Shown here piece by piece: positions 8,699-48,239 of a stretch of 64,000 bases of DNA. The notes beneath the pieces were generated by a model. That model did no database searches, was not told where the DNA came from, and saw only the letters and a program-made list of their open reading frames with translations. The stretch's first letter is position 1; each line of letters opens with the position of its first letter. The stretch spans positions 5,162 through 69,161 of the forward strand of contig JAGCVX010000014.1 of assembly GCA_017962145.1 (NCBI GenBank). Direction: 5' to 3'. Origin of the DNA: Clostridiales bacterium. Its GTDB lineage: Bacteria; Bacillota; Clostridia; Saccharofermentanales; Saccharofermentanaceae. Position numbers and translations under genes: made by a program.

Positions 8699-8702
8699 TC
8701 GT

Positions 8703-17109: not shown

Positions 17110-18894
17110 ATGAAAAGAATGAATGCGATGTGTGCGGCACTTCTTGCCGCAGGCATGGTGTGTACCACCGTGCCCGGTTTGGGAGAATTTCTGGTCCGTG
17201 CAGATGAAAACGGCGTGACTTTGACCGACACGGAAGAGGACATCAAGATCGATGAAGATCATTTCCCGGACGAAGAATTCCGAGCGGTCATCGGACAGGA
17301 GTTCGATACGGATCAGGATGGGATCTTAAGTGAAAAAGAGATCGAAGAGGCCAAGACGCTCAACTGTCTGGGATGCAAGATCTATGACATTACCGGTATC
17401 GAATACCTCACTGAGCTCGAGGAACTGCAGTGCGGTTTCAATACACTTCGCGAGATCGATATCAGCAGCAATACAAAGCTCAAGAGCCTGGACTGCTACG
17501 ATACAAAACTGACATCACTGGATCTTTCCGGAAATCCGGAACTGGAATATCTTTGCTGCTCGGACAACAAACTGACGAAGCTGGATCTTTCATCCAACAC
17601 GAAGTTAAAGCAGGTCGAGTGCTACGAGAACCTGATCACGGATCTGGATATTTCAAAGAATACAGAACTGCTTTCGATCAATTGCTACGGCAATCGTCTG
17701 AAAGAACTGGATACCACAAACAATCCGAAACTGGAAATTCTCAGTTGCGGATATAATCCGATCGAATCCGTAGATGTAAGTAAGAATCCGAAACTTCAGG
17801 AATTCTGGTGTTATGGCGGTAGCCTTACGACTATCGATCTGAGCCACCACGCGGATCTTCACATCGTAAGTCTTGCGGAAAACCCGCTTACGGATCTGTA
17901 TCTTTTTGACTGCCCGATCATGCTTGATCTGATGAAGGTGAGCCCGCTTCAGCGCGAAGTGAATCCGTATACGGGTACAGAATATCTTTACAGTGAATTC
18001 GATTTTGAAAAAGACGGACAGCCGCTTCACTGTTTCATCTATTTCAACTCAACCGCGACGCTTGTCACAGATAAAGAACCTCCGAAGCCGGTCGCTCCGG
18101 AACCCTCCACACCACAGCCGGAGCCGGCCACTCCGGCTCCGGTTTCCGACCCGACATTCTCTGATTTTGTCGAGCGGTTGTACACGATCGCACTCGGTCG
18201 TGCTTCGGAAGCGGACGGCAAAGCATACTGGGAAGAACAGGTCATAAAGAAGGGCCTCACAGGTGCGGACTGTGTTCGTTTCTTCCTTCTGAATTCGCCT
18301 GAATTCATGAACCGTGATCTCCCGAACGATCAGTTTGTTGAAGTACTGTATCAGACCCTTTTCGGCCGTGCACCGGAAGCGGATGGAAAAACATACTGGC
18401 TGGGACGTCTTTCTTCCGGAACGACGAAGACCGATATGGTAAATGAACTGATCGAGTCTGTCGAGTGGTGCAACACCTGCGCAACCTACGGCGTCAAGTC
18501 CGGAGCGAAAAGCCATAAAGCTACCGTTGCTTCGAAAAATGCTACGAAGTTTGCGACACGTCTTTACACCTGCTGTCTCGGAAGAGACCCCGAAGCAGAA
18601 GGTCTCACATACTGGTCACTTGCTCTGACGAATCTCGATGCTACAGGTTATCAGGCGGCAAGCTTGTTCTTCACGCTGCCGGAGTTCACAGGACTGAAAA
18701 CCACGAACGAAGAATATCTGACACGTCTTTATAAGACATTCATGGGAAGAGAACCGGAGACAGATGGATTCAACTATTGGCTCGGACTCTTATCCGGCGG
18801 CAAGGACAGAAACGAAGTCATGAAAGCATTTGCAGCCTGTCCCGAATTCCAGGAGATCTGCAATTCTTACGGCATCGTGCGAGGCGAGATCTGA
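17110..18894 (+). CDS. Secreted leucine-rich-repeat protein with a Pro-rich linker and three C-terminal DUF4214 repeats
   Basis: Signal peptide, then ~10 repeats of a ~22-aa LRR (LxxLDxSxNxxLxxLxC). Linker PPKPVAPEPSTPQPEPATPAP. Then 3 copies of (F/Y)VxxLYxxxLGRxxExxGxxYW. Confidence 0.75.
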   Translation: MKRMNAMCAALLAAGMVCTTVPGLGEFLVRADENGVTLTDTEEDIKIDEDHFPDEEFRAVIGQEFDTDQDGILSEKEIEEAKTLNCLGCKIYDITGIEYLTELEELQCGFNTLREIDISSNTKLKSLDCYDTKLTSLDLSGNPELEYLCCSDNKLTKLDLSSNTKLKQVECYENLITDLDISKNTELLSINCYGNRLKELDTTNNPKLEILSCGYNPIESVDVSKNPKLQEFWCYGGSLTTIDLSHHADLHIVSLAENPLTDLYLFDCPIMLDLMKVSPLQREVNPYTGTEYLYSEFDFEKDGQPLHCFIYFNSTATLVTDKEPPKPVAPEPSTPQPEPATPAPVSDPTFSDFVERLYTIALGRASEADGKAYWEEQVIKKGLTGADCVRFFLLNSPEFMNRDLPNDQFVEVLYQTLFGRAPEADGKTYWLGRLSSGTTKTDMVNELIESVEWCNTCATYGVKSGAKSHKATVASKNATKFATRLYTCCLGRDPEAEGLTYWSLALTNLDATGYQAASLFFTLPEFTGLKTTNEEYLTRLYKTFMGREPETDGFNYWLGLLSGGKDRNEVMKAFAACPEFQEICNSYGIVRGEI

Positions 18895-18920
18895 TCCTTC
18901 GCACATAACAACTAACTACT

Positions 18921-18996
18921 AAAAAGAGGAATCATCCTGCACGGCAAGTTTGCGTAAGCAACTGTTCGCAGCCGAAAGGATGATTCCTCTTTTTTA
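18921..18996. terminator. Long hairpin element (copy A): 17-bp arms and a 40-nt loop, flanked by A- and T-runs
   Basis: Arms aaaaagaggaatcatcc and ggatgattcctcttttt. The loop is tgcacggcaagtttgcgtaagcaactgttcgcagccgaaa. Confidence 0.65.
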
Positions 18997-19053
18997 TTCT
19001 TCAAATATTCATGATATAATTTCATAGACAGATTATTGGAGAGGAGAAATGAC

Positions 19054-21381
19054 ATGAGAAAAAGTAATGTACAAATACTGAGCATGTTGCTTGCGATCAT
19101 AATGTTGATCGGCATCATGCCGGGATTTAAGACGAACGTGTTTGCGGGTAACACGACACTGGTTATTACCTTCGACGCGAATGGTGGTACACCGGGAGAG
19201 GCTTGGAGAGACCAAGTCGAGCAGGAAGCGCCTTATACGGATACGGTATATGCTCCGCCCACATCATTCTGCACGCCGCCAAGTAGATGCGTATTCGATG
19301 GTTTCGAAATCGGCGGAAAACGCTATGGGGTCGGCGAAGCGTTCACACTTACGGAGGACACGGGCGTAAAATTCCTTTGGAAGTTTACCCGGGCCATCGT
19401 GTACTGGGATGCAAATGGTGGTACACCAGGAGAGGGTTGGAAAGACCAAGTCGAGCTGGAAGCACCTTATACGGATACGGTATATGCTCCGCCCACACCA
19501 TTCTGCACGCCGCCAAGTGGATGCGTATTCGATGGTTTCGAAATCGGCGGAAAACGCTATGGGGACGGCGAAACGTTCACAGTTACGGAGGACACGGGCA
19601 TAAAACTCCTTTGGAAGGCTACCCAGGCCATCGTGTACTGGGATGCAAATGGTGGTATGAAGGGAGATGGTTGGAAAGACAAAGTCGAGCTGGAAGTACC
19701 TTTTACGGATACGGTATATGCACCGCCCACATCATTCTGGATGCCGCCGCTTGGATGCGTATTCGATGGCTACGAAGTTGACGGAAAACGCTATGGGCCC
19801 GGCGAAACGTACACAGTTACGGAGGACGTGTGCATAAAACTCCTATGGAAAGTGATGCAGTGCAACGTGCAGTGGGATGCAAATGGTGGTACGCCCGGAG
19901 AAAAGTGGGTGGCATCCGAAACCCTCGATGCAGGCACGACGATCAAACTCGACAGAATCGGTGAAGATTATGTAACTCCACCGGAAGGTAAGGAATTCAG
20001 CCATTTCGAAGTTAATGGAGAAAAGGTTGCAAAAGGAGAAGAGATCATCATTTCTGGCCCGACATCGATCGTTTACTGCTGGAAAGCCAAGCTGTTCGAG
20101 GATGTACAGGTCAGCTTCGATTTGAACGGCGGAACCAAGGGCCCGAATTTCCCGAAAGACCCGATTCTCGTGACATACGGAATGGATTACCAATTTGAGC
20201 CGGTGACAGCCGAAATCGTTGTCGCCCCGAGAGGCATGAAGTTTGATGCCTATGAGGTCGATGGCGTGAGATATGAAGTTGGCGACCATTATGTCTTTAC
20301 GAAAGATACTACAATTAAATATCTGTGGATCAAAGATGGTCCGATGAAGCTTGATATCAAGTACGATGCCAATGGCGGAACAAAGGGCAGCAAGTGGCTG
20401 GACGGATTCCAGATCGAAGAAGGAAAAACACTCATTCTTTCTGATCTCGGTGAAGATTTCGTTACGGCTCCGGAAGGAAAAGAATTCGATGCATATGAAA
20501 TCGATGGAGTGAGATATGAACTCAATTCCAAGTACACCTTTACCAAAGATGTTACGATCAAGTTCCTCTGGAAAGATAAGACCGTAACACCGGAACCGCA
20601 GCCGGTATCCCCGGAGCCACAGCCGGTTTCTCCGGAACCGTCTTTTGCGGATTTTGTAGAGAGACTCTATACCGTTGCACTCGGACGTCCTTCCGAAGAA
20701 GAAGGAAAAGCATTCTGGGTCCATCAGGTAGAAAAGAAGGGTTTCACCGGCGCAGACTGCGCGAGATTCTTCCTTCTCGATGCACCGGAATTCCTTGGCA
20801 GAAATCTTACTGATGAACAGTTTGTCGAAACACTTTATCAGACATTCTTCGGACGCGAGTCTGAACCGGATGGAAAGGCATATTGGCTTGGCCGCCTCGC
20901 TTCCGGTTCTCCGAAAGCGGATCTTGTAAATGACTTTATCGAATCCGTAGAGTGGTGCAACATCTGTGCGACATATGGTGTTAAGTCCGGAGCAGTGTAT
21001 CACAAGGCTACCGTACCTTCGAAAAATGCAGTGAAGTTTGCAACAAGACTTTACACATGCTGCCTCGGAAGAGATCCGGAAGAAGATGGACTCAACTACT
21101 GGGCACTGGCGCTGACGAATCTGGATGCGACAGGCTACCAGGCTGCAAGTCTGTTCTTCACACTTCCTGAGTTTGTCGGTCTTAAGACAACGAACGAGGA
21201 GTATCTGAAGAGACTGTATACCACTTTCATGGGAAGAGAGCCGGAGGTTGAAGGATATAACTACTGGCTCGGCATGCTCAATGGTGGAGCAGACAGAAAC
21301 GATGTCATGAAGGCATTTGCCGGATGTCCTGAATTCCAGGATATCTGCAACCAGTATGGTATCGAGCGCGGAGAGATCTGA
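19054..21381 (+). CDS. Secreted protein with six Listeria-Bacteroides (flg_new-type) repeats, a Pro-rich linker and three DUF4214 repeats
   Basis: ATG 19054 follows GGAGAGGAG. Signal peptide, then six ~78-aa units beginning (F/W)DANGGT(P/K)G. Linker PEPQPVSPEPQPVSPEP. By-eye alignment shows the C-terminal ~240 aa match the upstream LRR protein at most positions. Confidence 0.75.
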   Translation: MRKSNVQILSMLLAIIMLIGIMPGFKTNVFAGNTTLVITFDANGGTPGEAWRDQVEQEAPYTDTVYAPPTSFCTPPSRCVFDGFEIGGKRYGVGEAFTLTEDTGVKFLWKFTRAIVYWDANGGTPGEGWKDQVELEAPYTDTVYAPPTPFCTPPSGCVFDGFEIGGKRYGDGETFTVTEDTGIKLLWKATQAIVYWDANGGMKGDGWKDKVELEVPFTDTVYAPPTSFWMPPLGCVFDGYEVDGKRYGPGETYTVTEDVCIKLLWKVMQCNVQWDANGGTPGEKWVASETLDAGTTIKLDRIGEDYVTPPEGKEFSHFEVNGEKVAKGEEIIISGPTSIVYCWKAKLFEDVQVSFDLNGGTKGPNFPKDPILVTYGMDYQFEPVTAEIVVAPRGMKFDAYEVDGVRYEVGDHYVFTKDTTIKYLWIKDGPMKLDIKYDANGGTKGSKWLDGFQIEEGKTLILSDLGEDFVTAPEGKEFDAYEIDGVRYELNSKYTFTKDVTIKFLWKDKTVTPEPQPVSPEPQPVSPEPSFADFVERLYTVALGRPSEEEGKAFWVHQVEKKGFTGADCARFFLLDAPEFLGRNLTDEQFVETLYQTFFGRESEPDGKAYWLGRLASGSPKADLVNDFIESVEWCNICATYGVKSGAVYHKATVPSKNAVKFATRLYTCCLGRDPEEDGLNYWALALTNLDATGYQAASLFFTLPEFVGLKTTNEEYLKRLYTTFMGREPEVEGYNYWLGMLNGGADRNDVMKAFAGCPEFQDICNQYGIERGEI
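19174..19875 (+). repeat. Three near-identical tandem 234-bp coding repeats
   Basis: Units start at 19174, 19408 and 19642. Units 1 and 2 differ at roughly 15-20 of 234 positions by eye. A fourth, more diverged unit starts at 19876. Confidence 0.85.
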
Positions 21382-27196: not shown

Positions 27197-27262
27197 AGGG
27201 AATAAATCTACGTCTTTTTGTGTGTTATAATGTACCCACGAAAGAGGGAAAGGGTTTCCGAT

Positions 27263-28156
27263 ATGAAGATCATCGATATTCTGAATAAAAAGAGCATGTC
27301 GCTTTCTTTCGAGGTATTCCCGCCGAAGAAAGAAGCCAGCTTTGAATCTGTAAAAGAGACCACGGAGAAGATCGCGGAGAGCAATCCTGCGTTCATGAGC
27401 GTTACGTATGGTGCCGGTGGCGGAACGAGCCGCTATACACTCGATATCGCCAAAGCGATCGAAGAAAAGCACGGTGTGCCGACGATGGCGCACCTGACCT
27501 GCGTATCCAGCTCCAGAGCGACGATCCACGACAAGATCGAAGAGATCCATAACTTAGGTATTCAGAATATCATGGCGCTTCGCGGCGACCTGACTCCTGA
27601 ACTCGAGCAGACCGACCGTTCGACATGGGACTACCGTCATGCGGTAGATCTCATCCGCGAGATCAAAGAGAGCGGTTATGACTTCTGCATAGGCGGTGCA
27701 TGCTATCCGGAGATCCACCCGGAAAGCCCAAACCAGCACGAAGATATCAAGCATCTGAAAGAGAAAGTCGAGGCCGGCGCAGATTTCCTGGTCAGCCAGA
27801 TGGTCTTCGACAACAATCTTTTCTATAACTTCCTCTACAAGATCAGAGAGGCAGGTATCACGGTTCCGGTCGTTCCGGGCATCATGCCGATCACGAACGC
27901 GATCCAGGTAGAAAAGGCCATCAAACTCAGCGGTTCTTTCATGCCCCAGCGTTTTAAGGCGATCGTGGATTATTTCGGACAGGATCCGGAGTCTATGAAG
28001 CAGGCCGGTATCGCTTATGCAACCGATCAAATCATCGACCTTTATGCCAACGGCGTTACGAATGTTCATGTGTATTCCATGAACAAGCCGGATGTGGCCG
28101 AGGCGATCATGAACAACCTCTCCAACATTCTCTGGAAGGATTACGGTATAAAGTAA
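27263..28156 (+). CDS. metF: Methylenetetrahydrofolate reductase
   Basis: SFEVFPPK, VTYGAGG, MAHLTC, ALRGD and GGACYPE motifs. An extended -10 TGTTATAAT lies at ~27223. Confidence 0.9.
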   Translation: MKIIDILNKKSMSLSFEVFPPKKEASFESVKETTEKIAESNPAFMSVTYGAGGGTSRYTLDIAKAIEEKHGVPTMAHLTCVSSSRATIHDKIEEIHNLGIQNIMALRGDLTPELEQTDRSTWDYRHAVDLIREIKESGYDFCIGGACYPEIHPESPNQHEDIKHLKEKVEAGADFLVSQMVFDNNLFYNFLYKIREAGITVPVVPGIMPITNAIQVEKAIKLSGSFMPQRFKAIVDYFGQDPESMKQAGIAYATDQIIDLYANGVTNVHVYSMNKPDVAEAIMNNLSNILWKDYGIK

Positions 28157-28166
28157 AAAACGAACC

Positions 28167-28829
28167 ATGGAACATGTTGACCAGATCATCGATGCACTGA
28201 CTGCGCGAAAGCAGACCATACCTCAGTATTTTACCTACGAGGACGTTCCGCTGAACGAATCGGAGTGGCTGCGGTATGCCTGCATTCCGACACGTGACCA
28301 TGCCATCGTAAAAGAAGATCCGAAGTTTACCGCCTCGATGGCAAAGGCACTTTCGCTGATCTCAAAGGAGTGTGTGTTCCGTGTCGGTTTTCTTGCGACG
28401 CCGCTGGTCTGGGATCAAGAAGGATTTCCGATCCTTCCCTTTGCACAGAAATCCGAAAAACTCCGAAAGACGATCGAAGGCTGCCGGTACGCCGTGCTTT
28501 TTGCGGCGACGATCGGATCCGGTGTGGACCGTCTGATCCGAAGATACGAGAAAGCTGATCCGCAGCTGGGTCTTCTTATGCAGGGTCTTGGCGCGGAGCG
28601 TGTGGAATCCTTATGCGATCTTTTTAATGCGGAAGTAGACGCAGCTTCTGACTCGATCGGAACTGCGACACGTCGCCGCTATTCACCGGGGTACGGAGAT
28701 CTTCCGATCGAAGCCCAAAGAGAATTTCTGCCGCTTCTCGACGCGGAAAGACGTCTCGGCATCACACTTTCGCAATCCTGCCTGATGGCGCCCAGCAAAA
28801 GCGTTACGGCAATTATCGGCATCGAGTGA
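28167..28829 (+). CDS. Stand-alone methionine synthase activation (reactivation) domain protein
   Basis: C-terminal RRYSPGYGDLPIEAQREFLPLLDAERRLGITLSQSCLMAPSKSVTAIIGI matches the Met_synt_B12 pattern. Confidence 0.75.
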   Translation: MEHVDQIIDALTARKQTIPQYFTYEDVPLNESEWLRYACIPTRDHAIVKEDPKFTASMAKALSLISKECVFRVGFLATPLVWDQEGFPILPFAQKSEKLRKTIEGCRYAVLFAATIGSGVDRLIRRYEKADPQLGLLMQGLGAERVESLCDLFNAEVDAASDSIGTATRRRYSPGYGDLPIEAQREFLPLLDAERRLGITLSQSCLMAPSKSVTAIIGIE

Positions 28830-28930: not shown

Positions 28931-30847
28931 ATGCGTGAAGCAGACAGTATCAAGAAAGAGAATGCATCTTTCGACAAGTGCAAAGACATCGTAGGTAAAC
29001 TAGGTCAAAATCCGCTGTTCATGGCTTTTTCCCTGAATCTGCTGGCATTTCTCATCAGGATCATTTTCTTCAACATCAAGTATGAAGTTTCGGATGACTA
29101 CATGACGGACGCACTTTTGTCCGGTGCTTTTGGAAGCGGCTACGATCCGATCCTTCTTTTCGGGAATCCGATCCTGGGCCACATGCTCGTATTCCTCTAT
29201 AAACTGATCCCGAACATCAGTTTCTATTTTGTACTTTTAGTCGTTCTCGGATTTGTCTCCGCAACGACGGTCCTATATCTGATTTTTAAGAAAAAGACGA
29301 ACGCGGTGACGATCGGCATGGCGATGCTGTTCCTGTTTTTCTTCGCGGATGACCTTTATATTCTGGTGCAGTTTACAAAAGTTTCTGCGGCAGCAGGTAT
29401 TGCCGGAGGTCTTTTAGTCCTTCGTGGATTATGGGAAAAAGAAGAACCGCACAAGATCCGTCTGATCGTTCTGGGTACGATCCTCGCCGTATTTGGTGCG
29501 ATGGTGCGTTTTACGACGATCTACCTGTTCGCATTCTTCCTCGTGATTGCTTTCCTTCGAAATGCACTGCCGCTTCTGCTTAATAAGCAGTCTTCAGATA
29601 GCGCTTCGAAAGAGGCTAAGATCTCGAAAGATGAACTGAAGGGCATAGGAAAAAGATTTCTCGCCTGCGTGCTTCTGATCGGTTTTCTTTTCGGACTGCA
29701 GTATCTCGGTAAATGGATCGCCAATCGTGACGAAGGACATCGGGAATTTAACAAGTTCCACGATATCCGAAGCAGCATCACGGATGTCATCACTCCGGAT
29801 TACGAGGAGATCGCCGATGAATATGCGGCACTCGGACTCGATAAGATCGATTACTACATGCTGGCAACATGGAACTTCGTGGATCGGGAAGTGTATTCAG
29901 ACGAGCTTCTGGAGGAAGTCGCGAAGATCCATAAGCAGGCCAGCGTGGATCAGACGCATTCCGTAAACTATGTGATCGATCTTCTGATCCAGAGAAACAC
30001 GCTGCTATACTGGTCGGCTCTCGGACTTTATGTGCTGATCCTGATTTGCCTGCTTCTCAGTAAAGACCGTATCTATCCGCTGGTGCTTCTTCTGGCGGCA
30101 GTCGGGATGCTCATGGCGTTTATCTACACAGGCCGCACGATGTACCGAGTCGAGTGGGGCGTATATTTCTGTGCGGTCGCATGTCTTTTGAGCAGTTTTG
30201 AATATAACGAGGAATCGGCTCCGGCAAAGATCCGCAAACACTATATGGGCAAGGAACGCCCTGTGATCGGTGTGTATGTGATGGTCCTGGTTCTCGGCAT
30301 CATGTGTACAAGAATCTCGAGACTTCTTCCGGATACTACCTATAAGAATATGTCTCATGAAGAATATCTCGAAAGCTTCAACAACACGATGCTTGCTTCC
30401 GGTGAATATCTTCCGGAGAAATATCTTTTCCCGTCTGTTGACAAGAAACCATTTCTGGCACTGACCGACCGTATGGAGAACGATTCGGAACATTTTTACT
30501 ACATCGATTTCTTTACCGGTATCCAGTCTCTGTATTTCGATTACGATCCGTGGATCCGTCCGCAGCAGGGACTTTTCTCTAAGAGCTATGCCTATTTCGG
30601 AAGTGTAGCCATGCATCAGCCTGGAGAACGCGATGCGCTCAAAGCCAACGGCTGCGATCCGGATAATCCGTATAAAAACCTGACCCTGGATAATATCTAT
30701 TTGGTTGATTCACTTTATTCCCCTGTCAAACTTGCCTACGTACAGAAATACTACTGTCCGGAAGCACAGCTGGAACAGGTCGGAGAAGTGGATGGATTTA
30801 TGATCTGGAAAATCTATGTCCCTGAGAGGAGTGAGAATAATGATTAA
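28931..30847 (+). CDS. Polytopic (~12 TM) membrane protein with a C-terminal soluble domain; candidate GT-C-type transferase
   Basis: Hydrophobic helices throughout. Acidic EVSDDYMTD motif directly after TM1. A ~190-aa hydrophilic tail. No recognised family. Confidence 0.35.
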   Translation: MREADSIKKENASFDKCKDIVGKLGQNPLFMAFSLNLLAFLIRIIFFNIKYEVSDDYMTDALLSGAFGSGYDPILLFGNPILGHMLVFLYKLIPNISFYFVLLVVLGFVSATTVLYLIFKKKTNAVTIGMAMLFLFFFADDLYILVQFTKVSAAAGIAGGLLVLRGLWEKEEPHKIRLIVLGTILAVFGAMVRFTTIYLFAFFLVIAFLRNALPLLLNKQSSDSASKEAKISKDELKGIGKRFLACVLLIGFLFGLQYLGKWIANRDEGHREFNKFHDIRSSITDVITPDYEEIADEYAALGLDKIDYYMLATWNFVDREVYSDELLEEVAKIHKQASVDQTHSVNYVIDLLIQRNTLLYWSALGLYVLILICLLLSKDRIYPLVLLLAAVGMLMAFIYTGRTMYRVEWGVYFCAVACLLSSFEYNEESAPAKIRKHYMGKERPVIGVYVMVLVLGIMCTRISRLLPDTTYKNMSHEEYLESFNNTMLASGEYLPEKYLFPSVDKKPFLALTDRMENDSEHFYYIDFFTGIQSLYFDYDPWIRPQQGLFSKSYAYFGSVAMHQPGERDALKANGCDPDNPYKNLTLDNIYLVDSLYSPVKLAYVQKYYCPEAQLEQVGEVDGFMIWKIYVPERSENND

Positions 30848-31982
30848 CTTTAATGAACCCCCGATGCTGGGTACGGAACTGAATTATATCACGGATGCAG
30901 TCATGACCTGCAAAAAACTCAGCGGTGACGGTAAGTATACCAAGCTCTGCAACGCCTGGATGGAGGAACATACGAGTGCGTCAAAGGCACTGTTGACGAC
31001 TTCCTGTACGCACGCGCTGGAGATGGCTGCGCTTTTATGTGAGATACGTGAAGGTGATGAGGTCATCATGCCTTCGTATACTTTCTGTTCAACGGCCGAT
31101 GCGTTTGTACTTCGTGGGGCGAAGATCGTATTCGTGGATATCCGCCCGGATACGATGAATATCGATGAGAAGCTGATCGAAGAGGCGATCACGGAAAAGA
31201 CGAAAGCCATCGTTCCCGTACACTATGCCGGTGTGGCCTGTGAGATGGACACGATCCTCGATATCGCCAAGCGTCATAACCTGTTTGTAGTAGAAGATGC
31301 GGCGCAGGGGGTGAAAGCTTTCTATAAAGGCCGTGCACTGGGTGCGATCGGAGATTTCGGATGTTTCAGTTTCCATGAGACGAAGAATTACTGCATGGGT
31401 GAAGGTGGTGCGATGCTTCTTCGTGAACCGGAATATATCGAGCGTGCGGAAATCATCCGTGAGAAAGGTACGAACCGAGCCAAGTTTTTCCGTGGTCAGA
31501 TCGATAAATATACCTGGGTCGACGCAGGAAGTTCCTATCTTCCAAGTGAACTGAATGCTGCCTACCTGTGGGCACAGTTGGATCAGGCTGATGAGATCCT
31601 CAATAAGCGCATGCATGTCTGGGATCTTTATAAGGAAGGTCTTTCAGATCTGGAAAAAGAAGGACATATCCAGCTTCCGTTTATCCCGGAAGAATGTGAG
31701 CACAATGCGCATATGTTTTATATCAAGTGCCGCGATCTCGAGGAACGTTCCGAATTGATCGCCTATCTCAGAAAGAAAGATATCAATGCGGTATTCCATT
31801 ATGTACCGCTGCATTCTTCGCCGGCAGGAAGAAAGTTCGGCCGGTTTTTCCAGGAAGACCGTTATACGACAAAAGAGAGTGACCGTCTGGTCCGTCTTCC
31901 GCTTCACTATAATCTGTCGGATGAGAACGTGACATATATCTGCGAAACACTCGCCGGCTTCTATAAAGGAGGCGAGAGATAA
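30840..31982 (+). CDS. DegT/DnrJ/EryC1-class sugar aminotransferase, close to WecE (dTDP-4-amino-4,6-dideoxygalactose transaminase)
   Basis: Long collinear identity with E. coli WecE as I recall it (EVIMPSYTF, VLRGAKIVFVD(I/V)RPDTMNIDE, VPVHYAGVACEMD, FHETKNY, NAHMFYIK, ESxRLxRLPL). Overlaps the upstream gene by 8 nt. Confidence 0.8.
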   Translation: MINFNEPPMLGTELNYITDAVMTCKKLSGDGKYTKLCNAWMEEHTSASKALLTTSCTHALEMAALLCEIREGDEVIMPSYTFCSTADAFVLRGAKIVFVDIRPDTMNIDEKLIEEAITEKTKAIVPVHYAGVACEMDTILDIAKRHNLFVVEDAAQGVKAFYKGRALGAIGDFGCFSFHETKNYCMGEGGAMLLREPEYIERAEIIREKGTNRAKFFRGQIDKYTWVDAGSSYLPSELNAAYLWAQLDQADEILNKRMHVWDLYKEGLSDLEKEGHIQLPFIPEECEHNAHMFYIKCRDLEERSELIAYLRKKDINAVFHYVPLHSSPAGRKFGRFFQEDRYTTKESDRLVRLPLHYNLSDENVTYICETLAGFYKGGER

Positions 31983-31984
31983 GG

Positions 31985-32998
31985 ATGGTCATCGTTTTTG
32001 GTGGAACTGGATTTATCGGACTTTATACGATCGAGGCGCTTGTCAAAGCCGGCTATGAAGTGATCGGAACGGGAAGAAATGCCCGCCTCGGAACGCTTGT
32101 CGAGCAGCTTGGCGCCAAATATCTGGAGCTGGACCTGACAAAGGAAGAGGATTTCAAAAAGCTTCCGACAGAAGGTGTCGAAGCCGTTATCCTGCTGGCC
32201 GGACTTCTACCGGCGCATGTCACGGCGGATCTTGTCGAAAATGAAAATGCCGCCGACTATTTTGAAGTAAATGTCATCGGCGCGATCCACGTGCTGGAAT
32301 ACTGCAGAAAGAACGGCATCCGTAAAGTCGTCGGCAGCTGCAGTTACAGTGATGTGTCCGGTGCATGGGGAACGGGTCGTGTGATCACGGAAGATGAACC
32401 GAGAAACTTCAAGTTTACGGGTGATCACGCGGTCTATGTGATCAGTAAGAACGCATGCAACGATGTCATGCAGTACTATAACGAGCAGCATGGTCTGCAG
32501 TGTTCCTGGTTCCGATTCCCACCGGTGTACGGCGTCGGCCCGCACGGCACGATCAAGGTGGACGGCAAGTCCTATAAATCCGGCATCGCGACGTTTATCG
32601 ACAATGCCGAATCCGGAAAAGATATCGAGCTTTGGGGTGATCCGCATATTTCTCGTGATATTATCTATGTAAAGGATGTGGCAGACGCGTATGTGAAAGC
32701 GATCCGAAGTGACAAGGCTCTGGGTCTTTACAACATGACAAGCGGTGTGGGACTGGATCTTGAAACGCAGGCACAGACCGTGATCGATGTATTCGGCAAG
32801 GACAAAGGAAGCCGGATCGTCTATCGTCCGGAAAAGAAGAACAACACACCATCCTATCTGTATTCGATGGAGAAAGCCGAAAGAGATTTCGGATTTGTTC
32901 CGCAGTATAAGGATTTTCGAAAGATGATGGAAGACTATAAGGAAGAACTGGAGAGCGGAAGATGGCAAATGCTGGTAGAAAGAAAAGAGACATACTGA
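31985..32998 (+). CDS. NAD-dependent epimerase/dehydratase (extended SDR)
   Basis: GGTGFIG Rossmann motif and YVISK (YxxxK). Confidence 0.75.
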   Translation: MVIVFGGTGFIGLYTIEALVKAGYEVIGTGRNARLGTLVEQLGAKYLELDLTKEEDFKKLPTEGVEAVILLAGLLPAHVTADLVENENAADYFEVNVIGAIHVLEYCRKNGIRKVVGSCSYSDVSGAWGTGRVITEDEPRNFKFTGDHAVYVISKNACNDVMQYYNEQHGLQCSWFRFPPVYGVGPHGTIKVDGKSYKSGIATFIDNAESGKDIELWGDPHISRDIIYVKDVADAYVKAIRSDKALGLYNMTSGVGLDLETQAQTVIDVFGKDKGSRIVYRPEKKNNTPSYLYSMEKAERDFGFVPQYKDFRKMMEDYKEELESGRWQMLVERKETY

Positions 32999-33960
32999 TC
33001 TCTGTAGTGATCCCGGTCTACGGGTGTAAAAAGGCGATCCCGGAACTGCATCGCCGCTTGAGCGAGTCACTTTCGAGTATCTCGGACAAATACGAGATCA
33101 TATATTCGAACGATGCCTGCCCGCAGGACTCCTGGAGCGAGATCAGCCGGATCTGCGATGAGGATAAACATGCGGTCGGCATCGAGATGGCCAGAAACTT
33201 CGGTCAGATGAAAGCGATCCTGGCAGGTCTGGATCATTCGTCAGGAAAGTATATCGTCGTCATGGACTGCGATCTGCAGGACCGCCCGGAAGAGATCCCG
33301 AAGCTGTACGCGAAGATCCGCGAAGGAAACGATATCGTATTTGCAAGACGTGCAAATCGAAAAGACAGCGCGATGAAAGTCTTCGTTTCGAATATGTTCT
33401 ATAAGCTCTACGAGTATGCCTCAGATACCGATTACGATGGCACGATCAGCAATTTCAGTATGGTGAGACGCCGCGTGATCGACTACTACTGCTCGATGCG
33501 AGAGCAGAGCCGAAGCTATGTCATCTATCTGAAATGGCTCGGTTTCCGTCAGGCTTATGTAGATGTTGAGCATAACGAACGTTTCGAAGGAAAGTCATCT
33601 TATAACTTCAAAAAGCGTATGAATATGGCGATCGACATCCTGACGTCACAGTCGGATAAGATCCTCCGTCTTACGGTGAAACTGGGGTTTGCGATCACGC
33701 TTCTTTCTTTGCTGGCGGTAATCTTTTTGGTCGTGCAGTATTTCACGATCCAGGTCGCTCCGGGATGGACCAGTACGATTGCCGTATCCTGCCTGATCTG
33801 CGGTCTTCTTTTGATGAGTAACGGTATCGTCGGAACCTATGTCGGCAATATCTTCATGCAGACGAAGGGACGTCCGCTTTACGTGATCCGTCAGATCAAA
33901 AACGGTCCGGAAAGCGAAGACGAAGAATCTTCCGACGAGGATGAAGGTGAAGAAGAATGA
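32962..33960 (+). CDS. GT2 polyprenyl-phosphate glycosyltransferase (ArnC/GtrB/CsbB type)
   Basis: VVIPVYG, ARNFGQMKAILAGLDHSSGKYIVVMDCDLQDRPEEI, two C-terminal TM helices and an acidic tail. Confidence 0.8.
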   Translation: MANAGRKKRDILISVVIPVYGCKKAIPELHRRLSESLSSISDKYEIIYSNDACPQDSWSEISRICDEDKHAVGIEMARNFGQMKAILAGLDHSSGKYIVVMDCDLQDRPEEIPKLYAKIREGNDIVFARRANRKDSAMKVFVSNMFYKLYEYASDTDYDGTISNFSMVRRRVIDYYCSMREQSRSYVIYLKWLGFRQAYVDVEHNERFEGKSSYNFKKRMNMAIDILTSQSDKILRLTVKLGFAITLLSLLAVIFLVVQYFTIQVAPGWTSTIAVSCLICGLLLMSNGIVGTYVGNIFMQTKGRPLYVIRQIKNGPESEDEESSDEDEGEEE

Positions 33961-35102
33961 AAAAACTTGCGATCATCGGTGCATCATACCTGCAGCTTCC
34001 TCTGATCCTTCGCGCGAAGGAGATGGGGATCGAGACCCACGTATTTGCATGGAAAGCAAACGATGTCGGTGAAACGGAAGCAGACTATTTCTATCCGATC
34101 AGCATCGTTGAAAAAGATCAGATCCTGGATCAGTGCCAAAAGATCGGCGTGGACGGCATCACGAGCATCGCCTCGGATCTGGCGGCCGTCACGGTCAACT
34201 ATGTTGCAGAGAAAATGGACCTGACCGGAAACGGTATCCAGAGTTCATTTTACGCATCCAATAAACATGCCATGCGCACGCGCTTTGCCGAAAACGGCGA
34301 TCCGTCGCCGAAAAGCATGGAATATGATCCTAAGCTGGATCTTTCTTCTTTTCAGCTTCCGCTGATCGTTAAACCGGCCGACCGTTCCGGAAGCCGTGGC
34401 ATCACGAAAATCGAAGATCTGAAGGAGATCCCGCAAGCCGTTTCTTACGCAAAAGAAGAAAGCTTTACCGGCGAAGTTCTGGTCGAGGAATTTGCCGAGG
34501 GCGAAGAGTTTAGTGTCGAGTGCATCTCGTGGGAAGGAAAGCATACGCTTTTGGCAATCACGAGAAAGTTCACCACAGGCAGCCCGTCTTTTGTAGAGAT
34601 GGGACATATGGAACCCGCATTTTTGAAAGACGATCCAATCTGTGAGAAGATCCGAAGCATCACGTACCATGCGCTCGACAGTCTTCAGATCCGCTATGGT
34701 GCTTCCCACACGGAAGTAAAGATCGATGAAAAAGGAAATATCAAGATCATCGAGATCGGTGGCCGTATGGGCGGAGACCTGATCGGAAGTTCACTGGTCC
34801 GCTTGTCGACAGGTGTGGATTTCGTCCGGGCTGTAATCGAAGTCGCACTGGGACAGGAACCGCAACTCGAAGGTGGTCTCAGCCGCGCCAGCGCAATCCG
34901 GTATTTCTTCAGCAAAGAAGATATCGAGCTTTATAACGAGATCAAAAGCGAGCATCCGGAATATATCGTGGAAGAATATAAAGTACATCTTCCGGAAGGT
35001 CATATTACTGACAGCTCCGTCCGTGAAGGATATTTTGTCATGTGCGCCGATTCTTTTGACGCGATCGATACTTATATGAGAAGAGGCGCAAAAAGTGAGT
35101 AA
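33957..35102 (+). CDS. ATP-grasp carboxylate-amine ligase
   Basis: KHAMRTRF, LIVKPADRSGSRGI, VLVEEFAEGEEFSVE, HTEVKIDEKGNIKIIEIGGRMGG. The start overlaps the GT2 stop. Confidence 0.75.
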   Translation: MKKLAIIGASYLQLPLILRAKEMGIETHVFAWKANDVGETEADYFYPISIVEKDQILDQCQKIGVDGITSIASDLAAVTVNYVAEKMDLTGNGIQSSFYASNKHAMRTRFAENGDPSPKSMEYDPKLDLSSFQLPLIVKPADRSGSRGITKIEDLKEIPQAVSYAKEESFTGEVLVEEFAEGEEFSVECISWEGKHTLLAITRKFTTGSPSFVEMGHMEPAFLKDDPICEKIRSITYHALDSLQIRYGASHTEVKIDEKGNIKIIEIGGRMGGDLIGSSLVRLSTGVDFVRAVIEVALGQEPQLEGGLSRASAIRYFFSKEDIELYNEIKSEHPEYIVEEYKVHLPEGHITDSSVREGYFVMCADSFDAIDTYMRRGAKSE

Positions 35103-35520
35103 GACGAAGCATACATGGAAGATCCTTTTGCTGTTACATCTTCTGCTGGGCGTTTATTCGTTAAGCGGCGTGTTCAGTAAGAAGGCGGCCGGGGAGGCTT
35201 TCCTGAGCCTGCGGTTCTGCCTTTTCTATGGCGGAATCATATTTCTTCTGGGTATATACGCGATTTTCTGGCAGCAGATCATCAAGAGGATGCCGTTGAC
35301 GACGGCGTACGCAAACAAAGCGGTCACGGTAGTATGGGGCCTGCTTTGGGGCATCGTGATCTTCCACGAAGGCATCACGATCAAAAAGACGATCGGAGCT
35401 CTGATCGTCATGGCCGGTATCGTCATATATTCCATCGAGTCAGCCAAAGAGGAAGAAAAAAAGGCGGCGGCTTCTATAGATGAGAAGGCTTCCGAGAAGG
35501 AGGCGACGGAAGATGAGTAG
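35095..35520 (+). CDS. Four-TM half-EamA/SMR-like protein (ArnE/ArnF-like flippase subunit)
   Basis: 141 aa, four hydrophobic helices and a charged tail. GTG start overlaps the ATP-grasp gene. Confidence 0.55.
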   Translation: MSKTKHTWKILLLLHLLLGVYSLSGVFSKKAAGEAFLSLRFCLFYGGIIFLLGIYAIFWQQIIKRMPLTTAYANKAVTVVWGLLWGIVIFHEGITIKKTIGALIVMAGIVIYSIESAKEEEKKAAASIDEKASEKEATEDE

Positions 35521-35854
35521 TCTCGGATATGCTGCCGTTTTGGTGTTTGGTGTGTTTATCAGTTCGATCTCGCAGGTGATACTAAAGAAAGCCGCGGATA
35601 AAAAGTATACGTCGGTGATCCGTGAGTACCTCAATGCCCGTGTCATCATCGCGTACAGTATTTTTGTCCTGGCAACGTTCATGTCGATCTATGCCTATAA
35701 GGGTCTGCCGCTTTCCTTCGGTCCGATCCTGGAAGCGACCGGATACATTTTTATCACGATCTGGGGACTTTTGTTTTTCAATGAGAAGCTGAATGCGAAA
35801 AAGGCACTGGCCCTGCTTCTGATCATCGGCGGTATCGTTATCTTCTCGATCTGA
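35513..35854 (+). CDS. Four-TM half-EamA/SMR-like protein (ArnE/ArnF-like flippase subunit)
   Basis: ATG 35513 follows GAAGGAGG and overlaps the upstream stop. SISQVILKKAA and LLLIIGGIVIFS resemble ArnE SVAGQLCQKQA and AFIIGGIVIL. Confidence 0.55.
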   Translation: MSSLGYAAVLVFGVFISSISQVILKKAADKKYTSVIREYLNARVIIAYSIFVLATFMSIYAYKGLPLSFGPILEATGYIFITIWGLLFFNEKLNAKKALALLLIIGGIVIFSI

Positions 35855-35944: not shown

Positions 35945-38386
35945 ATGAATATTCTCGAATATATGAAGGACCATTTCCTGTTCCTCGACGGCGGCATGGG
36001 GACGCTTCTTCAGGAAGCAGGGCTTCAGCCCGGAGAACTTCCGGAAAGATGGAATGTTTCTCGTCCGGAGGAGATCATCCGTATCCAGAAATCGTATTAC
36101 GACGCCGGTTCCAATGTAGTTCTGAGTAACACATTCGGCGCGAACGGATTAAAGTTCGACGATGAAGAACTGGAAACACTGGTAACCGCGGCAGTAAAGA
36201 ATTCGCGTGAGGCAGCGCGCCAGAGCAGCGGCACGCAGGAGAAATTCGTCGCACTCGATATCGGTCCTTTGGGAAAACTCCTCAAGCCTTACGGCGATTA
36301 TGAATTCGAAGACGCGGTCGCGATGTACAGTAAGACCATCCGGTACGGTGTTGCCGCAGGTGTAGATCTGATCTTCATCGAGACCATGAACGACAGCTAC
36401 GATACAAAGGCCGCACTTTTGGCGGCAAAAGAAAACTCTGACCTTCCGGTATTTGTTTCCAACGCATATGGCGCGGATGGAAAACTGATGACCGGGGCCT
36501 CGCCGGCCGCCATGGTGGCGATGCTCGAAGGCATGCATGCCGACGCGATCGGCGCGAACTGTTCACTCGGTCCGGATCAGCTTATCGGAGTGATGGAAGA
36601 ATACCTCGAGTACGCATCGGTTCCGGTTCTGCTGAAGCCGAACGCAGGTCTTCCGAGAAGTGAAAACGGAAAGACTGTCTACGACGTATTCCCGCCGGAG
36701 TTTGCCGAGTCGGTCGGAAAACTTCTGGAAAAAGGTATCCGCATCGCAGGTGGATGCTGTGGTACGACACCGGACTATATCCGCGCCGTCGTCGAAAAAT
36801 CGAAGTCCATCACACCGGTTCCGGTAACAGAAAAGAACCGCTCTCTGGTTTCGTCTTATACGAATGCCGTAGAGTTCGGCGGAAGTCCGATCCTCATCGG
36901 TGAACGTATCAACCCGACAGGTAAGAAGCGTTTCCAGCAGGCACTTCGCGAAAACGATATCGACTATATCTTAAATGAAGCACTGAAACAGCAGGATGCA
37001 GGCGTACAGCTTCTGGACGTCAACGTCGGTCTTCCGGAGATCGACGAACCGGCTTTCCTGCTTCGCGCGGTACGAGAACTGCAGGCTGTAACCGACCTTC
37101 CGCTTCAGCTCGATACGACCGATCCGGTCGCGATGGAAGCAGGTCTTCGCGCCTATAACGGGAAGGCGATGGTCAACTCCGTCAACGGTAAAGAAGAAGT
37201 CATGAAAGAGATCTTCCCGCTGGTTGCCAAGTACGGCGGATTCGTTGTCGCACTGACGATCGACGAAGGCGGTATCCCGGATACGGCGGAAGAACGTGTG
37301 GCGATTGCAGAAAAGATCATCAAGCGCGCAGCCGAGTACGGTATCGCGAAAAAAGACCTGATCTTCGACCCGCTGGCGATGACGATCTCGGCGGATACGA
37401 CCGCGGCGCTGGCAACGATGCAGGCCGTGCACAGGATCCGTCATGATCTGAAGGTCAACACTTCACTGGGTATTTCAAACGTTTCTTTCGGTCTTCCGAA
37501 CAGAAATATCATCACCTCGACATTCTTCGCGATCTGTCTGCAGGACGGTTTGTCTGCGGCGATCATGAACCCGTATTCACAGGAGATGATGAATGTCTAC
37601 TTTGCATTCCGCGCACTCCATAACATGGATGAAAACTGCATGGATTACATCAGCTATGCGCAGAATCTTCCGGCTCCGACGATGGCTGCACCGGCAGCAG
37701 GTTCCGCACCATCCGGCGCTCCCGCAGCAGACGCATCTTCGTCGGGCGGACCGACATCGGAACTGCAAAAAGCGATCGTCCGCGGACTGAAGGAGAAGAC
37801 CGGTGCGCTGACAAAAGACCTTCTGAAAGAAAAGCAGCCTCTGCAGATCATCCAGGAGGAAGTTATCCCGGCGCTGAATATCGTAGGCGAAGATTTCGAG
37901 AAGAAAAAGGTTTATCTGCCGCAGCTTCTGATGGCTGCCGAAGCGTCGAAGGCGGCATTTGAAGAAGTAAAAAAACTTATGGCGGAGTCCGGTGGTGCCG
38001 GTCCGACAAGATGCTCGTTCGTTCTTGCGACCGTGCACGGCGACATCCACGATATCGGAAAGAATATCGTGAAACTGATCCTGGAGAACTACGGATTTGC
38101 CGTTTCGGATCTGGGAAAAGATGTGCCGGAGCAGGACGTCGTGGATGAAGTCATCCGTCTGCACGCACCGATCGTAGGCCTGTCGGCTCTTATGACGACG
38201 ACGGTTCCGGCGATGGAAGAGACGATCAAGCTTCTTCGTGAGCAGGCGCCTTGGGCAAAGGTTTGTGTCGGCGGCGCGGTACTGACGCAGGAATACGCCG
38301 ATCAGATCGGCGCGGACCGTTATTGCCGAGATGCGATGGAAACTGTCCGTTACGCAGAAGAGATCGATCAGGCACTGAACGCCTGA
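35945..38386 (+). CDS. metH: Cobalamin-dependent methionine synthase core (Hcy-binding, pterin-binding, B12 cap and B12-binding domains; no activation domain)
   Basis: LDGGMGT, GGCCGTTP, SNVSFGLP and HGDIHDIGKNIV (DxHxxG). 813 aa, ending right after the B12-binding domain. Confidence 0.9.
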   Translation: MNILEYMKDHFLFLDGGMGTLLQEAGLQPGELPERWNVSRPEEIIRIQKSYYDAGSNVVLSNTFGANGLKFDDEELETLVTAAVKNSREAARQSSGTQEKFVALDIGPLGKLLKPYGDYEFEDAVAMYSKTIRYGVAAGVDLIFIETMNDSYDTKAALLAAKENSDLPVFVSNAYGADGKLMTGASPAAMVAMLEGMHADAIGANCSLGPDQLIGVMEEYLEYASVPVLLKPNAGLPRSENGKTVYDVFPPEFAESVGKLLEKGIRIAGGCCGTTPDYIRAVVEKSKSITPVPVTEKNRSLVSSYTNAVEFGGSPILIGERINPTGKKRFQQALRENDIDYILNEALKQQDAGVQLLDVNVGLPEIDEPAFLLRAVRELQAVTDLPLQLDTTDPVAMEAGLRAYNGKAMVNSVNGKEEVMKEIFPLVAKYGGFVVALTIDEGGIPDTAEERVAIAEKIIKRAAEYGIAKKDLIFDPLAMTISADTTAALATMQAVHRIRHDLKVNTSLGISNVSFGLPNRNIITSTFFAICLQDGLSAAIMNPYSQEMMNVYFAFRALHNMDENCMDYISYAQNLPAPTMAAPAAGSAPSGAPAADASSSGGPTSELQKAIVRGLKEKTGALTKDLLKEKQPLQIIQEEVIPALNIVGEDFEKKKVYLPQLLMAAEASKAAFEEVKKLMAESGGAGPTRCSFVLATVHGDIHDIGKNIVKLILENYGFAVSDLGKDVPEQDVVDEVIRLHAPIVGLSALMTTTVPAMEETIKLLREQAPWAKVCVGGAVLTQEYADQIGADRYCRDAMETVRYAEEIDQALNA

Positions 38387-48007: not shown

Positions 48008-48239
48008 ATCATTATCCTCTCGAAATATTACAAATATTCACACTATACTCTAACACAAACGAACCGTGATTTCCATTTCTGTAAGGTTACAGTGCTCGGA
48101 ACAGGCGGAAGATCGGGCGATCCTTCCGGGCTTTTTCGTGCCCGTGCGTAACTTGTGTCCATGTGGTACAATGGTGCTTGCAGATTTGTATTCCTATTAA
48201 TACAGATTGCGAGAAAAGAATCGAAACCGAGGAACTGAC

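Follow-up and report, generated by a model that had tools for sequence, protein, structure and literature searches.

WecE, the aminotransferase of the enterobacterial common antigen (ECA) pathway, converts dTDP-4-keto-6-deoxy-D-glucose into dTDP-4-amino-4,6-dideoxy-D-galactose (dTDP-Fuc4N), a 6-deoxy sugar without a carboxylate. Both the WecE-type and the ArnB-type routes require N-acylation after transamination, which is carried out by WecD in ECA and by the ArnA formyltransferase in the Arn pathway. In Gram-positive bacteria, multi-component systems such as CsbB/GtcA/YfhO, GtlA/GtlB, GacI-J-K-L, Gts and Csd use a family 2 glycosyltransferase (GT2) to load a sugar onto undecaprenyl phosphate, a small flippase, and a glycosyltransferase of the GT-C fold with a modified DxD motif to decorate lipoteichoic acid, wall teichoic acid or cell-wall polysaccharide; the characterised systems add glucose, galactose or GlcNAc from common UDP-sugars via GtrA- or Wzx-type flippases (PMC8035078). 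Here we analyse a cassette of seven genes in a 64,000-nt stretch of DNA from a Clostridiales bacterium of the Saccharofermentanaceae (GCA_017962145.1, contig JAGCVX010000014.1, positions 5,162-69,161), which is called the window below and whose own positions serve as coordinates. The cassette (28931-35854, + strand; Table 1) encodes a 638-aa membrane protein, a pyridoxal phosphate (PLP)-dependent aminotransferase, an extended short-chain dehydrogenase/reductase (SDR), a GT2, an ATP-grasp ligase and two EamA-like proteins with four transmembrane (TM) segments each. On balance it is probably a self-contained multi-component transmembrane glycosylation operon, by which a lipid-linked N-acyl 4-amino-6-deoxy sugar would be attached outside the cell.

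The nature of the sugar is indicated by the aminotransferase, which an earlier note on this DNA had placed in the WecE/ArnB class. It turned out to be a WecE equivalog that passes the NCBIfam models PRK11706 (646 bits; cutoff 375) and TIGR02379 (636 bits; cutoff 435), aligns end to end with E. coli WecE (377 aa, of which 65% are identical and 78% positive) and matches Pfam DegT_DnrJ_EryC1 at 4.6e-89. The ArnB part of the assignment failed, with 185 bits against a cutoff of 631 for the ArnB model and 29% identity to E. coli ArnB. The substrate expected from these matches is dTDP-4-keto-6-deoxy-D-glucose, and since the enzyme is of the WecE type and not ArnB, the sugar would be a dTDP-derived 4-amino-4,6-dideoxyhexose and not 4-amino-4-deoxyarabinose (Ara4N). 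The same note had called the whole cassette Arn-like; this description is right for the logic and wrong for the sugar.

The SDR, recognised from the start as an extended one, is GalE-like. It has the GxxGxxG motif and an intact S...YxxxK catalytic set, its best PDB relatives are UDP-hexose/UDP-HexNAc 4-epimerases, and it stays below the NCBIfam equivalog cutoffs for GalE (81 vs 262), RmlB (60.6 vs 365) and UDP-4-keto-pentose synthase (27.7 vs 294). It is not a 4,6-dehydratase, because the T-D-E triad of E. coli RffG aligns to S-C-S in it. We also considered whether it could substitute for RmlB, and this was ruled out by the missing catalytic D/E pair and by the non-RmlB SDRs that accompany RmlA/RmlB in Bacteroides loci; the SDR is distinct from the true RmlB present in related loci. 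At least eight related loci have RmlA and a genuine RmlB (STDEVYG...YSSSK) right beside the module, which supports a dTDP-6-deoxyhexose origin of the sugar.

The transfer step was assigned through the predicted structure of the 638-aa protein. This protein has no Pfam or NCBIfam match above cutoff, the Pfam result is the same for 37 relatives and 10 distant members, and a profile search of PDB sequences with the family found nothing. An AlphaFold2 model was built from 37 homologs (mean pLDDT 89.1, pTM 0.90), and its best Foldseek match in PDB is ArnT (5F15; E 4.8e-4, probability 1.0, TM-score 0.45/0.52), followed by ALG12, EmbA/EmbB, ALG9, PglB and Pmt1/2/4. All of the top seven matches are GT-C enzymes, and everything below them is noise. 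The model counts 11 TM helices and a C-terminal domain of 173 residues, so that the polytopic protein with a soluble tail proposed earlier is borne out, with its figures (about 12 helices, about 190 aa) slightly corrected. By the positive-inside rule, the N-terminus is predicted to be cytoplasmic and the C-terminus outside; the loop of 96 residues that follows TM7 would be outside too, like the C-terminal domain.

The acidic SDDY motif that had been noticed after TM1 belongs to YEVSDDY at residues 51-57, directly after TM1 in the predicted first outer loop, the usual place of the DxD-like motif in GT-C enzymes (PMC8035078). Across 65 members of the family, some only about 20% identical, D55 and D56 are conserved at 90% or more. 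In the same 65 sequences the near-invariant residues are D55, D56, G65, G83, Y99, T149, G159, R193, R280, D285, W314, D318, R402, R406 and P564, and the polar ones are all placed on the outer face by the predicted topology. Both the GT-C-like fold and the conserved acidic loop that the earlier note had expected of this protein are therefore found. In profile comparisons by hhalign, the family gave a probability of 0.5% with E. coli ArnT, 1% with the YfhO protein of the window itself and a marginal 29% with PMT_2-type GT-C enzymes, collinear over TM2-TM6; there is no PMT_2 Pfam match. Judged from the model, the likeness to ArnT is at the level of the fold only, and the protein is supported as a GT-C-fold glycosyltransferase of a family without a name in Pfam or NCBIfam.

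This family is large. An exhaustive search with hidden Markov models (HMMs) found 5,844 representatives at 50% identity with E <= 1e-3 and 1,183 with E <= 1e-30, whose source names are only "hypothetical protein" or generic labels such as "glycosyltransferase family protein"; a re-search with a divergent alignment and cluster look-ups for curated family names returned none. The exact 638-aa sequence is from a metagenome-assembled genome (MAG) named "Clostridiales bacterium", which has the locus tag J6Y08_04340, and its close relatives are from rumen and gut MAGs labelled Saccharofermentans, Ruminococcaceae and Clostridiales. Another open reading frame (ORF) of the window also encodes exactly 638 aa (Table 1) and was considered as a paralog, which was rejected, as BLASTP is not significant and no Pfam family is matched; the equal length is coincidental.

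When one genome was scanned for each GTDB species, 44 loci with the GT-C family were obtained, and together with Luxibacter (L001 in our numbering) 45 loci were used for an unbiased clustering of the neighbouring ORFs. The most frequent neighbours are the GT2 (33 loci), the WecE-type aminotransferase (28) and the ATP-grasp protein (28), followed by SDRs (18), the two EamA proteins (14 and 11), GT4 (14) and Wzx (13), while Bac_transf (9), Wzy_C (9), RmlA (8) and a second, PMT_2-type GT-C (8) are rarer. For a strict count, the aminotransferase had to reach 350 bits or more, the GT2 to have 290-360 aa and a C-terminal TM segment, and the flanks to extend 5 kb or more on either side. Among the 27 loci that qualify, WecE occurs in 19, the membrane GT2 in 18 (within 10 kb of the GT-C gene), the ATP-grasp gene in 19 and the EamA pair in 12; WecE, GT2 and ATP-grasp are all present in 13, and at least one of them in 24. 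In most cases WecE directly adjoins the GT-C gene, with a median gap of 118 bp and with both on one strand in 23 of 26 cases, and the GT2 gene lies on the GT-C strand in 23 of the 26 GT2-containing loci among all 44. The order GT-C, DegT, GT2, LAL-type (L-amino acid ligase) ATP-grasp, EamA, EamA is kept even around a family member that is only about 22% identical; Luxibacter massiliensis has the same gene order, and Bacteroides uniformis has the complete gene set. The synteny with the partner genes, kept across dozens of species, is far beyond chance, and the operon is spread widely among gut Firmicutes and occurs in some Bacteroides as well.

Some related loci show further arrangements. A second GT-C of the PMT_2 (ArnT-like) type occurs in eight species (L029, L034, L037, L043-L046, L050), often beside a non-RmlB SDR of about 300 aa, and many loci (e.g. 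L001, L026, L032, L036, L054) hold two paralogs of the new GT-C family. In L043 and L044 (Bacteroidaceae/Bacteroides uniformis), the ATP-grasp protein, SDR, PMT_2 GT-C, WecE, GT2, EamA pair, RmlA, RmlB and new GT-C are found together, and such a full module in a Gram-negative Bacteroides suggests cross-phylum transfer within the gut. Genes for CapK_C proteins (adenylate-forming, phenylacetate-CoA-ligase-like) follow the module in L001 and L054, the latter also with DUF362 and hexapeptide-transferase genes, and these suggest additional and variable tailoring of the sugar with acyl groups.

These neighbourhoods also bear on what the 638-aa protein does. It might be another polytopic envelope enzyme (a polymerase, ligase or lipid-modifying enzyme) and not a polyprenyl-phosphate-sugar transferase, with the soluble enzymes supplying a nucleotide sugar for cytoplasmic repeat units. 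The fold likeness to GT-C enzymes is moderate and has no profile link to ArnT or YfhO behind it, and about half of the closest species loci (about 50% identical) lack the cassette and have the gene beside an AP_endonuc_2/AMP-binding fusion and lipid genes of the FakA, DegV, acyltransferase and acyl carrier protein (ACP) kinds. The fusion itself, an 841-aa protein with a xylose-isomerase-like TIM barrel (AP_endonuc_2), lies upstream of the GT-C homolog in L003, L005, L008, L009, L012 and L013; the Pfam-annotated fusion loci, often without the cassette, also hold AMP-binding/PP-binding, FakA, DegV, acyltransferase and ACP genes. This neighbourhood makes a lipid acceptor conceivable and also hints at an acyl donor. 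We nevertheless regard a different envelope enzyme as very unlikely, given that nothing other than GT-C enzymes scores in the fold search, that a DD motif in the first outer loop is a GT-C hallmark (PMC8035078), and that the repeated tight linkage to a GtrB/ArnC-type GT2 and a small-flippase pair is sensible only for a route through a lipid-monophosphate sugar.

The fifth gene product was correctly read as an ATP-grasp ligase. It has 381 aa, matches ATP-grasp_4 with 74.6 bits (cutoff 27), and its closest solved relatives are L-amino acid ligases (LALs), namely BL00235 (3e-28 over residues 3-300) and BacD (5e-12). The motifs PLIVKP, EEFxEGxEF, HTE and IEIGGRMGG are kept, a LAL_C2 domain is found in the homologs of related loci, and the best NCBIfam equivalog, PRK02186, is not passed (134 vs 625). 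By sequence, the protein is of the L-amino-acid-ligase type, with predicted carboxylate-amine ligation, which strengthens the idea of aminoacylation. No acetyltransferase, formyltransferase or polysaccharide-deacetylase domain was found among the seven cassette proteins with Pfam and NCBIfam, and because there is no acetyl- or formyltransferase, the ATP-grasp protein is the only candidate for N-acylation in the cassette. It is placed at this step because the known routes need N-acylation and because the cassette's carboxylate-amine ligase appears translationally coupled to the GT2, whose gene it overlaps by 4 nt. The amine substrate is predicted to be the amino sugar.

Alternatively, the product of the ATP-grasp protein might be a dipeptide or some other small amide, or the protein might amidate a carboxylate that belongs to the acceptor polymer or to a further sugar, for instance a uronic acid; free or otherwise modified Fuc4N would then be transferred by the same lipid-linked machinery. 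Its closest solved relatives indeed join two free amino acids, sugar-acting ATP-grasp amidoligases reportedly use glucuronate carboxylates (Campylobacter capsule work), the gene occurs without a nearby aminotransferase in L013 and L016-L018, and a PglD-like N-acyltransferase of some loci could take the amine. What makes this unlikely in our view is the 4-nt overlap with the GT2 gene, the company of both WecE and GT2 in 13 of the 27 full-flank loci, the lack of a carboxylate on the WecE product, and the absence of any other N-acylating enzyme from the window cassette, when ECA and Arn both need this step.

For lipid loading, the GT2 is a putative polyprenyl-phosphate sugar synthase by its sequence. 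As had been suggested for an ArnC/GtrB-type enzyme with C-terminal TM helices, it aligns along its whole length with the solved GtrB sll0501 (5e-50) and ArnC (1e-44), shares 32% identity with E. coli ArnC from end to end, and has TM segments at 241-259 and 268-292. In NCBIfam its best model is PgfS (219 bits; cutoff 500), and ArnC follows with 172 bits (cutoff 529), so that it is a homolog and not an equivalog. The two 4-TM proteins are candidate flippase subunits with weak sequence likeness to ArnE/F. EamA1, with four hydrophobic segments, has 24 bits for EamA (below the cutoff of 28.2), its best NCBIfam model is ArnE (30 bits; cutoff 92), and it is 25% identical to E. coli ArnE over 55 aa only (E 7e-7). 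EamA2 has 26 bits for EamA, 24 for TPT, 25 for EbrA and 20 for ArnE, all below cutoffs, and no significant similarity to E. coli ArnF; the ArnF model gives 24.5 bits (cutoff 99) for the small 4-TM proteins. The half-EamA pair shows the proposed likeness to ArnE/ArnF only weakly. Its linkage to the GT2 is firmer: the pair adjoins GT2/ATP-grasp in 16 of the 44 species loci, there in company with the GtrB/ArnC-type GT2 and the GT-C gene, as it also does at the locus of the roughly 22%-identical GT-C, and EamA2 is always paired with EamA1 in related loci.

From the computed family identities, GT-C fold, residue conservation, topology and synteny we infer substrates, an order of steps, an acyl group, a flippase activity and an acceptor as follows. 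dTDP-4-keto-6-deoxy-D-glucose would come from RmlA/RmlB encoded elsewhere in the genome, a supply that is assumed because neither gene lies within the 64-kb window, and the WecE-type enzyme would transaminate it to dTDP-Fuc4N. The LAL-type ATP-grasp enzyme would turn a small carboxylate, in the likeliest case the alpha-carboxyl of an amino acid, into an activated acyl phosphate and ligate it to the 4-amino group of the sugar, in the role that WecD has in ECA and the ArnA formyltransferase in Arn; this N-acylation may pull the unfavourable transamination forward. If the acyl group is an amino acid, a free amine would be left, and the product would thus be cationic without any ArnD-like deprotection. 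The GtrB/ArnC-type GT2 would then move the N-acyl sugar to undecaprenyl phosphate, the two EamA-like proteins would flip it as an ArnE/F-like heterodimer, and the new GT-C would transfer it to an envelope polymer. The GalE-like SDR may tune the donor as an epimerase or ketoreductase acting on the nucleotide sugar.

Several observations weigh against this route. Four loci of close species (L013, L016-L018) have the GT-C, GT2, ATP-grasp and EamA-pair genes and no aminotransferase within 10 kb, and three others (L008, L010, L014) show the GT-C with WecE and the EamA pair but lack ATP-grasp and a neighbouring GT2, L014 with only a truncated GT2 fragment at the contig end. Therefore the ATP-grasp protein and the amine are not always encoded together, and the pathway can be split between loci or occur in variants; both halves (WecE on the one side, GT2/ATP-grasp on the other) are combined in the window cassette and in L011. 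The PglD-like hexapeptide acyltransferase, found in five or six loci, could acylate the amine instead. RmlA and RmlB are absent from the 64-kb window, and the SDR matches no defined step. The GT-C assignment comes from fold comparison at TM-scores of 0.45-0.52, with a null result for the ArnT profile and a marginal one for PMT_2. The C-terminal domain, modelled in isolation at pLDDT 80, has no significant fold match and hence gives no pointer to the acceptor. The 4-TM proteins score alike against models of ArnE/F and of small multidrug resistance (SMR) drug exporters. To our knowledge, the GtrB/ArnC-type enzymes characterised so far use UDP-sugars, and a dTDP donor would be unusual.

For the acceptor, the Lachnospiraceae loci are informative. 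In Dorea, Blautia, Mediterraneibacter and Coprococcus, the module often stands right behind Wzx as the last part of Bac_transf-GT4-GT2-Wzy loci, which argues for the decoration of a polysaccharide made by Wzx/Wzy. The sugar could alternatively be placed on protein, by O- or N-glycosylation of surface or S-layer proteins as in Pmt or streptococcal Pgf, with the DUF4214 and leucine-rich repeat proteins of the window as candidate targets. In favour of this, the GT2 scores best with PgfS, which belongs to protein glycosylation in S. mutans, a GalE-like epimerase is part of Pgf too, Pmt1/2 and Pmt4 are among the fold matches of the 638-aa protein, and the window has large surface proteins and no Wzx/Wzy/Bac_transf polysaccharide-assembly gene in its 64 kb. 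However, the PgfS score is far under its cutoff, the Pmt fold matches are weak (E 0.17-0.2), the best fold match, ArnT, is a lipid/glycan modifier, and the position at the end of Wzx/Wzy loci speaks for a polysaccharide, so we hold a protein acceptor to be quite unlikely.

With a lipid-linked sugar transferred to an envelope polymer as our preferred reading, a broader and clearly more tentative picture can be drawn. The system might be a widespread functional equivalent of the Ara4N modification, mainly in Firmicutes, in which the LAL-type ATP-grasp enzyme aminoacylates a 4-amino-6-deoxyhexose linked to dTDP or undecaprenyl phosphate and the new GT-C puts this cationic sugar on the teichoic acids or wall polysaccharides of Clostridia from gut and rumen and, by way of gene transfer, of some Bacteroides. 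Such a decoration might tune surface charge, resistance to antimicrobial peptides and recognition by the host immune system, and variation of the ATP-grasp protein and of the accessory acyltransferases might give strain-specific acyl groups.

The gene layout agrees with that first described: all seven + strand ORFs, co-directional, tightly packed and mostly overlapping, were found in place. The intergenic distances in gene order are -32 (-8 from the start at 30840), +2, -37, -4, -8 and -41 (or -8) nt, and the GC content of the cassette (0.48-0.50) is similar to that of the surrounding DNA. The starts at 30840 and 35513, which had been chosen earlier, are preferred over those of the longest ORFs at 30816 and 35480, because the alignment of E. 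coli WecE begins at M9 of the longer aminotransferase ORF and because independent gene calls on four contigs use both of them. The profile-HMM family calls of the aminotransferase, SDR, GT2 and ATP-grasp protein were likewise confirmed (Table 1). The identical arrangement, including the flanks, is present on four separately assembled contigs (three from ENA and one from Logan), and it is therefore not an assembly artefact.

Table 1. Genes of the cassette and other features of the window.
Feature	Position	Strand	Family evidence or remark
LigB/Memo-like-AMMECR1 fusion, then radical SAM enzyme	8673-11023	+	resembles AmmeMemoRadiSam-type system
Two large DUF4214-repeat proteins	17110-21381	+	one with leucine-rich repeats
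metF and stand-alone MetH activation-domain gene (220 aa)	27218-28829	+	
GT-C-fold membrane protein, 638 aa (fold-based)	28931-30847	+	fold comparison; no Pfam/NCBIfam family
WecE-type PLP aminotransferase	30840-31982	+	NCBIfam PRK11706, TIGR02379; longest ORF from 30816
Extended SDR, GalE/PelX-like	31985-32998	+	Pfam Epimerase 3.1e-39
Membrane-anchored GT2, GtrB/ArnC/PgfS type	32962-33960	+	Pfam Glycos_transf_2 1.1e-23
ATP-grasp carboxylate-amine ligase, LAL type (predicted)	33957-35102	+	Pfam ATP-grasp_4 8.6e-21
4-TM half-EamA/SMR-like protein (EamA1), candidate flippase subunit 1	35095-35520	+	weak EamA/ArnE scores
4-TM half-EamA/SMR-like protein (EamA2), candidate flippase subunit 2	35513-35854	+	weak EamA/TPT scores; longest ORF from 35480
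metH core gene	35945-38386	+	
OmpR-type response regulator, histidine kinase, ABC ATPase, FtsX/MacB permease (785 aa)	38251(38410)-43663	+	
YfhO-family GT-C, first of tandem	48207-50996	+	Pfam YfhO 541 bits
YfhO-family GT-C, second of tandem	50993-53749	+	Pfam YfhO 281 bits
Second ORF of 638 aa	54902-56818	+	no Pfam family
Type IV pilus/T2SS-like (type II secretion system) cluster	57444-63963	-	GC 0.42-0.47

In the window, the cassette is flanked by metF and the MetH activation-domain gene before it and by the metH core gene after it. This split of the met genes is reproduced on the four independent contigs and is seen at no related locus. After metH, a response regulator, a histidine kinase, an ABC ATPase and an FtsX/MacB permease form a group like the BceRS-BceAB antimicrobial-peptide sensing modules. 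A functional coupling of the cassette to the met genes or to this group was considered and is unsupported: no related locus has met or FtsX genes beside the module, and these neighbours therefore give no functional clue. An Rfam scan of the window found no element, including no SAM or B12 riboswitch, and there is no consensus promoter in the 101-bp gap upstream of the cassette and no terminator before metH.

Elsewhere in the window, two tandem YfhO-family GT-C genes have no GT2 or flippase gene beside them, and their products may rely on polyprenyl-phosphate sugars supplied from other loci, those of the cassette's GT2 perhaps among them. The two DUF4214-repeat proteins are probable cell-surface proteins, and a GH3 glycosidase and a DUF3737 protein are encoded after them. 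The pilus/T2SS-like cluster, which includes two prepilin-type N_methyl proteins, PilN, PilM and T2SSF, has a lower GC content than the rest of the window (about 0.50).

If the proposed route is true, it defines a large GT-C family for which Pfam and NCBIfam have no model, adds undecaprenyl-phosphate-N-acyl-Fuc4N to the lipid-linked donors and puts L-amino-acid-ligase chemistry to a new use, on an amino sugar. The surface-decoration module would be common in the abundant genera of the human gut and the rumen Dorea, Blautia, Mediterraneibacter, Coprococcus, Eubacterium and Saccharofermentans, and present in Bacteroides uniformis as well. The surface glycans of these genera are little known, yet they are relevant to immunity and to phage interaction. 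A concrete annotation rule would follow for thousands of "hypothetical protein" calls, and since several carriers can be cultivated, among them Eubacterium ruminantium ATCC 17233, Luxibacter massiliensis, Mediterraneibacter glycyrrhizinilyticus, Coprococcus hominis and Dorea sp. 5-2, the hypothesis is directly testable.

Compared with the known systems, the cassette would share with Arn the logic of an aminotransferase, an N-acylation, a GT2 that loads undecaprenyl phosphate, a heterodimeric 4-TM flippase and a GT-C transfer outside; the individual likenesses are those of the GT2 to ArnC (32% identity), of the 638-aa protein to ArnT (best fold match) and, weakly, of EamA1 to ArnE. It differs in that the aminotransferase is of the WecE type and not ArnB, that an ATP-grasp ligase stands in place of ArnA (UDP-GlcA decarboxylase/formyltransferase) and ArnD, that the sugar would be a dTDP-derived 6-deoxyhexosamine whereas that of Arn is a UDP-pentosamine, and that the GT-C has no sequence-profile relation to ArnT. 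As the memberships of ArnB, ArnA, ArnD, ArnT and the ArnC equivalog all fail, the cassette is not a member of the Arn pathway; its Clostridiales host presumably has no lipid A, judging from taxonomy. With the dTDP-Fuc4NAc branch of ECA (RffH/RffG/WecE/WecD), it has WecE in common at 65% identity, as well as the RmlA/RmlB homologs that adjoin the module in related loci. WecD, WecF, WzxE and WzyE are absent from it, the ATP-grasp enzyme would replace the acetyl-CoA-dependent N-acylation, and the sugar appears to be routed to undecaprenyl phosphate as a monosaccharide, not into a cytoplasmic repeat unit as in ECA.

The Gram-positive multi-component systems share with the cassette the membrane GT2, a GT-C with a DxD-like motif and the conserved linkage of the two. 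Unlike them, it encodes its own donor-tailoring enzymes (WecE, ATP-grasp and SDR), its candidate flippase is an ArnE/F-like EamA pair and not GtrA/GtcA or Wzx, and its GT-C is outside the named families (YfhO, PMT_2, DUF2142-type etc.). Pgf of S. mutans (PgfS, PgfM1, PgfE, PgfM2) combines a GtrB-like GT2, polytopic membrane proteins and a GalE-like epimerase, and PgfS is the best NCBIfam match of the cassette's GT2, far below the cutoff as said above; Pgf has no aminotransferase or ATP-grasp protein.

The L-amino acid ligases (BL00235, BacD/YwfE, DdaF, PylC) are the best relatives of the cassette ATP-grasp protein among solved structures and in NCBIfam, with shared motifs. The cassette protein is shorter than typical LALs, reaches no equivalog cutoff, and sits among sugar and lipid-carrier genes, not among peptide-antibiotic genes. 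In the literature searched, we found no described precedent for an LAL acting on an amino sugar, so that the aminoacylation of a 4-amino-6-deoxyhexose, if true, would be enzymology without precedent there. Full-text searches likewise returned no paper that links ATP-grasp to WecE, Fuc4N, Qui4N or a GT-C module, and an Actinoplanes exopolysaccharide paper examined as a precedent is not analogous. The statement of the earlier note that this gene combination matches no characterised pathway is upheld, for no O-antigen, capsular polysaccharide or ECA locus with this set was found in the literature searched. Most likely, then, the general logic is the known one of the Arn and CsbB/GtcA/YfhO types, and what is new is the gene set, the unnamed GT-C family, the WecE-derived donor and the LAL-type acylation.

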